A DNA stretch of 32,000 nt from Candidatus Jordarchaeales archaeon. Its GTDB lineage: Archaea > Asgardarchaeota > Jordiarchaeia > Jordiarchaeales > Freyrarchaeaceae. The notes below the pieces were generated by a model. That model ran no database searches and had not been told where the DNA came from. It saw only the letters and a list, made by a program, of their open reading frames with translations. Positions 5,638 through 20,688 of the stretch are shown here, in pieces; the first letter of the stretch is position 1, and every line of letters starts with the position of its first letter. The stretch spans positions 104,356-136,355 of the forward strand of contig JAWAHN010000002.1 of NCBI GenBank assembly GCA_038889235.1. Direction: 5' to 3'. The position numbers and the translations under genes were made by a program.

Positions 5638-5727
5638 TGGCGGCCCCGAGGGGACTTGAACCCCTGAATTCCCGGCTTAGGAGGCCGGTGCCCTCTCAGG
5701 AACACATCCTGGCTAGGCCACGGGGCC
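5638..5727 (-). tRNA. tRNA-Arg(CCT) with genomic CCA and an 11-nt intron at 20a/21
   Basis: Acceptor GGCCCCG/CGGGGCC, anticodon stem CCGGC/GCCGG around CT-CCT-AA, T arm AGGGG-TTCAAGT-CCCCT. Removing 5695..5705 gives a normal D arm GCCTAGCCAGGATAGGGC. Confidence 0.95.
5695..5705 (-). other. 11-nt tRNA intron (bulge-helix-loop type)
   Basis: Intron GTGTTCCTGAG. Helix CAGG/CCTG; cuts AT|G and AG|A fall 2 nt 3' of each helix strand. Confidence 0.85.
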
Positions 5728-5766
5728 AACCAGCAGCCACACCAATAATACCTAAACAACTACTAG

Positions 5767-5811
5767 TTTTTTAATCCTTTCCCTTCCATAAACACCAGAA
5801 AAGTTTAAGTA
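5767..5811. promoter_or_regulatory. Divergent BRE/TATA promoters for tRNA-Arg (-) and tRNA-Gly (+)
   Basis: GAAAAGTTTAAGTA at 5798..5811, about 30 nt upstream of tRNA-Gly; TTAAAAAA on the minus strand at 5767..5774. Confidence 0.55.
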
Positions 5812-5840
5812 CAATCTCCACAATTACCCAAGACTTGGGC

Positions 5841-5936
5841 GCGGGCGTAGTCCAGCCTGGTCTAAGACGGCGGCCTGCCACGCCGCGGACCCGGGTGGTT
5901 AACAAAAACCAGGGATTTCAAATCCCGGCGCCCGCA
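5841..5936 (+). tRNA. tRNA-Gly(GCC) with a 21-nt intron at 53/54
   Basis: Acceptor GCGGGCG/CGCCCGC, anticodon stem GCGGC/GCCGC around CT-GCC-AC. Removing 5896..5916 restores the T arm CCGGG-TTCAAAT-CCCGG. Confidence 0.95.
5896..5916 (+). other. 21-nt tRNA intron (relaxed BHB)
   Basis: h GA/TC, H CCCG/AGGG (one G.A mismatch), bulges GG|T and AT|T, h' GGTT/AACC. Confidence 0.85.
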
Positions 5937-19463: not shown

Positions 19464-19476
19464 GAAAGTTTAAAAA
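19464..19476 (+). promoter_or_regulatory. BRE/TATA upstream of alba
   Basis: GAAAGTTTAAAAA, 75 nt upstream of the alba ATG. Confidence 0.45.
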
Positions 19477-19550
19477 TTCCGTCATCCCTTCTTATTCAAG
19501 AAAGTTCTAGGTTTCCAATATTAGCAGCAGAGAAGGGAGGGCGAATCCAT

Positions 19551-19877
19551 ATGGCTAAATCAAAGGAAAAAGGTTCTTCGACGGAAAATATGGTTTTTGT
19601 AGGTAAAAAACCGACAAAGTGAGGCGGAAGCCGCCCACGTCGAATGAGTTATGTTTTGGCGTGTGTAATGCAGTTTAGTCAAGGAGCCAATGAGGTGAGA
19701 GTCGTAGCGCGTGGAAGAGCGATTTCAAAGGCAGTCGACGTCGTGGAAATAGTGAGGCAGCGCTTCATGCCAGACTCCGTGAAACTAGGAGAAATTAAAA
19801 TCGGAACAGAAACTATTGGCTCAGGCGAAGACCAACGCAACGTGTCCACAATAGAGATACAGCTCGTCAGAGTGTAA
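19551..19877 (+). CDS. albA: DNA/RNA-binding protein Alba, interrupted by a 27-nt BHB intron; join(19551..19617,19645..19877), 99 aa
   Basis: Spliced product reads [17 protein letters not shown]...[17 protein letters not shown], a contiguous Alba signature. GGGAGG SD before ATG 19551. Confidence 0.93.
19618..19644 (+). other. 27-nt mRNA intron with a BHB motif in alba
   Basis: h C-G, H CGAC/GTCG (perfect), bulges AA|A and AA|T, h' GTG/CAC extended by GGCGG/CCGCC. Contains an in-frame TGA. Confidence 0.9.
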
Positions 19878-19899: not shown

Positions 19900-20103
19900 T
19901 TGATAGTTGTTGAAAAAGTTAAGAGGAATGACGTGAGGTGCGGCAAATGCGACGCACCTCTCACATTTACCCTTATTTGGGAGAACGGAAAGTACTCTTG
20001 GACCTACGAGTGTGAAAACTGCTCGTCTGCTCAAAAACAAAAGAAGGATCTTTGTGAAGACATGAGAGATGAATTTGTTAAGAGACTTGTGAGGTCATGG
20101 TAA
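19900..20103 (+). CDS. Small Zn-ribbon protein
   Basis: CGKC...CENC; TTG start after GGAGG; co-oriented with alba. Confidence 0.65.
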   Translation: MIVVEKVKRNDVRCGKCDAPLTFTLIWENGKYSWTYECENCSSAQKQKKDLCEDMRDEFVKRLVRSW

Positions 20104-20106
20104 TCT

Positions 20107-20688
20107 TTGCGGTTCAAGTGTCTTAAGTGTGGGAGTTGTTGTAGAGATAAAAAAACCATAGTCACATTGACTCATAAAGACATAATTAGGATCGCTGAGT
20201 TCTTGAGTTTGGACGAAAGAAGGCTTGTAAGGGATGTTCTCATTTTTTACCAAGTTGATGAAGGCCTTAAAAAGCTCCTTGCCTTCCCCTCCGTTGAAAC
20301 TTTCAGAGGGGAGGCGATCATAGGATTAAGGAAAAGAGAGGACGGGTCTTGCATATTTTTGCAAGGCAACCTCTGCAGTATATACCCGGCGCGCCCCATG
20401 ACATGTAGAACTTTTCCCTTCACGTTTTCCGTAAAGGAGGGATGGCTGAAGTACGGTGTTGCTACAAAGGCCAAGGAACTTTGCCCAGGACTGAACGAAG
20501 GCGAGGAGATTGACGAAAACCAGTTAGCTGAAATAGGCTTAAGCGCGGTCACCGAACTCGAAGAGTACTCCAGAATAGCTTCGTTGTGGAAGAAGGTGGT
20601 CGAAAAAAGCATTCCCGCGATACCCGAACTGTTAGTTAGGCTCATATTGCAAGGGAAAGATGAAAAGAAAATTGCCTTGACACACTAA
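20107..20688 (+). CDS. YkgJ family cysteine-cluster protein
   Basis: FKCLKCGSCC, CIFL, CSIYPARPMTCRTFPF, CPG. Confidence 0.9.
   Translation: MRFKCLKCGSCCRDKKTIVTLTHKDIIRIAEFLSLDERRLVRDVLIFYQVDEGLKKLLAFPSVETFRGEAIIGLRKREDGSCIFLQGNLCSIYPARPMTCRTFPFTFSVKEGWLKYGVATKAKELCPGLNEGEEIDENQLAEIGLSAVTELEEYSRIASLWKKVVEKSIPAIPELLVRLILQGKDEKKIALTH

Follow-up and report, generated by a model that had tools for sequence, protein, structure and literature searches.

The alba gene of a Jordarchaeales archaeon is in all probability interrupted by a genuine archaeal bulge-helix-bulge (BHB) intron, a segment of 27 nt within the coding sequence of one of the two alba genes of this genome; we put the probability of this reading at roughly nine in ten. 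The initial annotation had taken the segment for an intron of the endonuclease type, and that view is now supported by the anatomy of the gene, by orthologous introns in related genomes, by the junction found in intronless relatives, by covariation within the fold, by a contig from an RNA library, and by the presence of EndA and RtcB genes. The DNA analyzed here, called the window, is a stretch of 32,000 nucleotides (G000:C2:104356-136355) from the genome, G000, of a hot-spring Jordarchaeum species; the genome has a size of 2.14 Mb and a completeness of 95%.

The locus contains two open reading frames (ORFs) that lie in the same frame (Table 1), the second of which runs from ATG 19644 (MSYVLAC...) to the TAA stop. 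The position of the 27 nt and the in-frame TGA that they contain are as the initial annotation gave them. Its further claim, that cutting 2 nt into each bulge yields CCG ACA ATG AGT and a 99-aa Alba, was reproduced by removing 19618..19644 from the sequence; the spliced junction 19617/19645 then reads CCGACAATGAGT, and the protein across the junction reads ...KPTMSYVLAC.... Exon 2 matches profile positions 12-65 of the Pfam Alba family (PF01918) with a score of 65 bits, and in the two intronless orthologues the same profile is unbroken over positions 2-65, across the junction. Of 19 exon 1 positions compared with the N-terminus of an intronless relative's orthologue, 17 are identical. A search of Rfam at the intron site returned no known RNA family.

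Table 1. Features of the split alba locus, in coordinates of the window, and of the EndA paralogs, in coordinates of the genome
Feature	Coordinates	Strand	Remarks and basis
A/T-rich TATA-like box, putative promoter element	19469..19476	+	About 75 nt 5' of the start codon; inferred from sequence
Shine-Dalgarno-like GGGAGGG	19535..19541	+	9 nt 5' of ATG 19551; read from sequence
alba, whole split gene	19551..19877	+	ATG 19551, TAA stop 19875-77; sequence reading and Pfam
alba exon 1	19551..19617	+	22 codons and base 1 of the Met codon; Lys-rich tail and strand beta-1
Whole BHB motif	19611..19646	+	All pairs Watson-Crick
BHB intron, 27 nt	19618..19644	+	Phase 1, inside the Met codon (A/TG)
Intron hairpin (inner helix h')	19619..19638	+	GUG-A-GGCGG, loop AAG, CCGCC-CAC
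In-frame TGA	19620..19622	+	Ends the unspliced frame one codon past the 5' splice site
alba exon 2, including the TAA stop	19645..19877	+	Helix alpha-1 onwards (SYVLACV...); Pfam Alba, 4e-18
Zinc-ribbon gene (67 aa) and CxxCxxCC gene (193 aa)	19900..20688	+	Co-oriented, downstream of alba; context
EndA paralog, first	G000:C1:1056164-1056754	+
EndA paralog, second	G000:C3:444282-444869	-

In the predicted fold, an outer pair (C19611-G19646) is followed by a central helix of 4 bp, formed by CGAC at 19612-15 with GUCG at 19639-42, and by two bulges of 3 nt each on opposite strands, AAA at 19616-18 on the 5' side and AAU at 19643-45 on the 3' side. The intron hairpin pairs GUG 19619-21 with CAC 19636-38 and GGCGG 19623-27 with CCGCC 19631-35, which amounts to an inner helix of 8 bp interrupted by a single bulged A; this helix is present in every fold computed. 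The pairs and bulges listed in the initial annotation were recovered, all of them Watson-Crick where paired; its description of the motif as near-ideal was overstated, as the outer helix is 1 bp long. The exon-exon helix h consists of one C-G pair, beyond which lies an A-A mismatch, and the motif is therefore a relaxed one on its 3' side. Nor does the outer pair lend independent support, because coding also fixes the two letters that form it. When the same 27 nt were shuffled, only 109 of 2,000,000 shuffles (5.5e-5) reached even an in-register central helix with three inner pairs, so that a chance origin of the motif is improbable.

Without constraints, the minimum free energy (MFE) fold of the G000 sequence at 37 C keeps the intron hairpin, pairs the exon letters elsewhere, and has no central helix. 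Within a 66-nt context, the free fold has an energy of -20.6 kcal/mol versus -17.0 kcal/mol when the BHB is enforced, the BHB being about 3.6 kcal/mol less stable. The MFE fold of the G005 sequence is the BHB itself, and that of G004 keeps the central helix, the 5' bulge, and the hairpin, the 3' side being closed with a 1-nt bulge.

A survey of 11 genomes of the class Jordarchaeia (Asgard) found an alba orthologue in every one, and an intron at the same alba site in nine. The intron measures 27 nt in the genome of the window, 28 nt in G001, 40 nt in G004, which belongs to another genus, and 30 nt in six Freyarchaeum-like genomes. The two remaining genomes, the sister species G002 and G003, have no intron, and their junction, ccgaca/ATGAGT, is exactly the predicted one. 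When the paired positions of the nine intron-bearing genomes were aligned, all 83 cells of the nine pairs proved to be standard (100%), as compared to 4-49% of cells in a control with slid pairings. The two 3-nt bulges and the 4-bp central helix are kept in all nine, the helix being invariant, and hairpin pairs 3 and 5 show compensatory replacement of G-C by A-U across genera. It was such an alignment of relatives, for gain or loss and for covariation, that the initial annotation had proposed, and its outcome favors the intron. The exon strand of the central helix shows a single change, from CCG to CCA, and it is found in an intronless species. In all species, ACA-ATG is obtained only from a cut past letter 2 of each bulge, an outcome that independently tests the canonical cleavage site.

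The order of alba, the zinc-ribbon gene, and the CxxCxxCC gene is kept across the order Jordarchaeales. In a tree of the three syntenic proteins, G002 and G003 are sisters (support 94/92) and are nested among the intron-bearers, so that the simplest history is one in which the ancestor shared by the whole order already had the intron and a single precise loss followed. By that history, the intron would be older than the divergence between the Jordarchaeum family and the Freyarchaeum family, and the one precise loss would have taken place within a Jordarchaeum sublineage. The alba orthologues and paralogs of the other Asgard and the non-Asgard lineages sampled are uninterrupted at the Jordarchaeales site. 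A genome search for the intron as a repeated element gave, as its only other match, a 17-nt identity at C4:12128; this was rejected as a second intron copy, being a chance match that sits inside an uninterrupted ORF.

RNA across 19617/19645, which the initial annotation had named as a check, is represented by a contig of depth 26, X1, from a run recorded as metatranscriptomic. This contig covers 19584-20000 with seven mismatches and lacks exactly 27 nt; it is one assembled contig from a sediment record, another habitat, with no matched DNA from the sample. In the alignment the gap falls at 19616; owing to the AA repeat, this is the same deletion as 19618..19644. X1 is about 98% identical to G000, whereas other species of the genus are 77-80% identical over the same stretch, and the contig is therefore assigned to the same species as G000. 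The zinc-ribbon and CxxCxxCC genes are covered by X1 as well. A second candidate comes from a Freyarchaeum-like relative: the Logan contig L118 (SRR28530378, 1057 nt) differs from the G010 locus L011 by four mismatches (about 99.6% identity) and by one 30-nt gap, which corresponds to the alba intron. If that run is RNA, L118 represents a spliced Freyarchaeum-like alba transcript. The raw-read metatranscriptomes X2-X4, sampled at 3-5% of each run, gave no reads on this stretch. Among the runs listed as containing intron-spanning words there is no RNA run, which is neutral either way.

Of the alternatives to a BHB intron, the one that survives best dispenses with splicing: a 23-aa peptide would be made together with a truncated 77-aa Alba from ATG 19644, and the hairpin would have a regulatory or stabilizing role. 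We regard this as very unlikely. The genomic codon at the 3' site, which is ATG, GTG, or TTG depending on the species, is a possible start codon in every intron-bearing genome, and public gene calls for Freyarchaeum-like contigs do begin an Alba of 78 aa from exon 2 (P0003, P0006-P0009). The coincidence of start codons is weak, however, because three of the four possible letters would give one. The truncated product would also lack strand beta-1, represented by positions 1-11 of the Pfam profile, and exon 1 is under coding constraint, being kept as ENMVF[VI]G[KR]KPT, with core differences among relatives that are mostly synonymous. Moreover, a Shine-Dalgarno-like motif precedes 19551, but none is found in the sequence upstream of the internal ATG 19644. 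Nearly all of the 11 orthologues have a GGGAGG motif 5' of their start codon; the motifs of G000 and G003 were read directly, since the ortholog comparison had started both at an earlier ATG. Lastly, the RNA-library contig X1 has the joined form.

It is likewise highly improbable that the split alba is a decaying pseudogene, its work being done by a paralog, and that X1 stems from an intronless strain. A second, uninterrupted Alba gene does exist at G000:C2:201769-201930 (locus L001); it reads ...IGNKPV-MNYVLA and is 57-59% identical to exon 2. Its presence means that the cell does not wholly depend on splicing for Alba, so the proposal in the initial annotation that Alba depends on tRNA-type splicing holds for one paralog and fails for the other. 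The sample of X1, having no matched DNA, would also accommodate an intronless strain of the same species, yet the stable retention of the intron makes such an origin unlikely. A pseudogene is further at odds with an interruption at the same site across two families in which the exons are intact and no other lesion is seen, with spliced Alba proteins that are 74-96% identical among orthologues, and with the retention of both the Shine-Dalgarno motif and synteny; nor would a covarying BHB persist in a pseudogene.

An insert of nine codons, in frame and translated through a recoded TGA by selenocysteine or other suppression, is extremely improbable. In its favor, Jordarchaeia have been reported to recode stop codons, the length of 27 nt is divisible by three, the stop is TGA and is followed by a hairpin, and in one public gene call (P0005, locus L119) the Freyarchaeum form is translated into a protein of 118 aa with TAG as Q. 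Every unspliced form has a stop one codon past the 5' site, but this is TGA in Jordarchaeum and TAG elsewhere, namely in G004 and all of the Freyarchaeum genomes. The 28- and 40-nt orthologous inserts shift the frame as well, so that read-through cannot rescue them. The insert is conserved as base pairs rather than as protein, and it is wholly absent from two species. The remaining alternative, an assembly or sequencing artefact, has nothing found in its favor and is practically negligible, given that all five of the intron-spanning words sampled recur in three DNA runs that were assembled independently and come from two hot-spring studies, so that the intron is real DNA and the initial concern that the 27 nt might be missing from reads does not apply, and that equivalent inserts occur in nine genomes from different studies.

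For removal of a BHB intron, the genome offers a plausible set of enzymes. G000 has two genes of the EndA family (PF01974; 111 and 77 bits), encoding proteins of 196 and 195 aa, and one RtcB gene (PF01139; 600 bits, 1.6e-180). The closest chains to the first EndA paralog are 3p1z_B, 3ajv_B, and 2zyz_B (4e-47), which we take to be catalytic subunits of crenarchaeal two-subunit enzymes (see also PMC2724299). The second paralog is divergent and, as judged by eye, is without the His of the catalytic triad. These sequences make it probable that the G000 endonuclease is a two-subunit, (alpha-beta)2 enzyme like that of Crenarchaeota, a type described as tolerant of relaxed motifs (PMC5829648).

We propose that, in the alba pre-mRNA, the exon sequence CGAC, which belongs to codons CCG-ACA, would pair with the intron sequence GUCG to form a helix that has a 3-nt bulge at either end and stacks on the GC-rich intron hairpin. 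The tRNA-splicing endonuclease, probably in its two-subunit, crenarchaeal form, would cut past letter 2 of each bulge, and RtcB would join the exons. Joining would remove the stop codon and at the same time build the conserved Met codon (A+UG), resulting in the full-length Alba of 99 aa. In this scheme, both the assignment of the steps to EndA and RtcB and the production of the protein are inferred.

The alba gene is not the only split gene in G000. The gene for protein-L-isoaspartate methyltransferase (pcm) is split by a 31-nt BHB at G000:C1:804315-804345 on the minus strand (locus L120), with a CGCC/GGCG helix, bulges ACU and ACA, and a 10-bp hairpin; its exons match the Pfam PCMT profile at positions 2-59 and 61-208. 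A 27-nt BHB with a UCAG/CUGA helix and AAA bulges splits an oxidoreductase gene of the FAD_binding_4 family at G000:C3:304889-304915 on the plus strand (locus L121), the exons lying at profile positions 1-80 and 93-139. The cbf5 gene (TruB_N) is split as well, at G000:C1:835906-836211 (L116, L117), where profile positions 13-55 and 72-149 are matched and a TGA lies inside. Separately, a BHB-shaped insert of 32 nt, with a GUUC/GAAC helix and bulges GAA and AGG, was observed at G000:C1:1035681-1035712 on the minus strand (L122); it lies upstream of an ORF for a hexapeptide-repeat transferase, and its exon 1 has no family match.

A census of the genome was also made for motifs with a 4-bp helix, 3-nt bulges, and at least three inner pairs, with filters for ORFs and codon usage. 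The motif gave 14655 hits versus 14511 for a decoy pairing rule under loose settings, 31 versus 41 at a codon-score cut-off of 0.2, and 6 versus 9 at 0.3. A count of introns from the motif by itself was rejected as no better than the decoy, and only individual hits checked against Pfam were used; since the motif alone cannot count introns, no total is given.

The alba intron sits in the archaeal group closest to eukaryotes, where it is kept across an order and precisely lost in one branch. Taken with the further split genes of G000, it suggests that mRNA splicing independent of the spliceosome is ordinary in some Asgard lineages, and it bears on the way in which interrupted genes and RNA-level repair could be tolerated before spliceosomal introns arose. 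There is also a practical consequence, in that public annotations have either cut the split alba short, at 77-78 aa, or translated through the intron under a wrong genetic code. A broader proposal, which we consider doubtful, is that the alba intron belongs to a sizeable and ancient set of endonuclease-type introns in the coding sequences of Jordarchaeales, an Asgard lineage for which mRNA splicing by the enzymes of tRNA splicing would be routine, and that it is kept because it couples the dosage of Alba to the capacity of EndA and RtcB, on which nearly all tRNAs also depend.

Our search of the published literature found no alba intron and no Asgard mRNA intron, consistent with the initial annotation, which was not aware of a described alba intron. 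The nearest observation from the same lineage concerns tRNAs: in Freyarchaeia and Atabeyarchaeia, 92-95% of tRNA genes are interrupted, in many cases by more than one intron and outside the canonical positions (Valentin-Alvarado et al. 2024, PMC11291895). These are introns of the same kind as that of alba, although the report deals with tRNA introns only and makes no mention of alba or of mRNA introns. Their frequency accounts for an abundant and permissive splicing machinery. Within the window itself, Rfam identifies a tRNA of 96 nt at 5841-5936 (plus strand), long enough for one or more introns, and ARAGORN calls an odd 90-nt 'tRNA-???' at 5638-5727 (minus strand); these odd calls at 5638-5936 fit the intron-crowded tRNAs of the lineage.

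In the same host gene, an intron of the same kind occurs in Aenigmatarchaeota-like contigs (L062:773-853, L065, L066:1435-1515, L078), where alba carries a 28-nt insert in the codons for GK/K. Its MFE fold is a textbook hBHBh', with a UAGG/CCUA helix and bulges AAA and AUA. The insert lies 10 nt upstream of the Jordarchaeales site, in the same Alba loop, and since its position in alba is different, it was apparently gained independently.

Among mRNA substrates of the splicing endonuclease, HVO_1309 of Haloferax volcanii (Schwarz et al. 2020, PMC7714728) resembles alba in being cut by this enzyme, but its intron lies in the 5' UTR, the protein is not interrupted, and the enzyme is a homodimer. 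As of 2020, the cbf5 intron was described as the only other BHB intron in archaeal mRNA besides this 5'-UTR case (PMC7714728). The cbf5 intron of Crenarchaeota (Watanabe 2002; Yoshinari 2006; Yokobori 2009, PMC2738675) is the closer parallel, in that it too is a short, frame-breaking BHB intron within a coding sequence, its removal needs the tRNA-splicing endonuclease and a ligase, and its hosts have a two-subunit EndA and many tRNA introns. Its phyletic pattern also includes secondary precise loss (PMC2738675), the same pattern as that of alba. The two differ in the evidence for splicing, which for cbf5 consists of RT-PCR and in vitro cleavage and for alba of one line, the RNA-library contig, and they differ in host gene and phylum, alba encoding a chromatin/RNA-binding protein and belonging here to Jordarchaeales of the Asgard archaea. 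With unusually good comparative backing and a first piece of support from RNA, alba is, against the literature searched, a well-supported second host gene, after cbf5, of BHB introns in coding sequence, and it extends them to a new gene and a new phylum.
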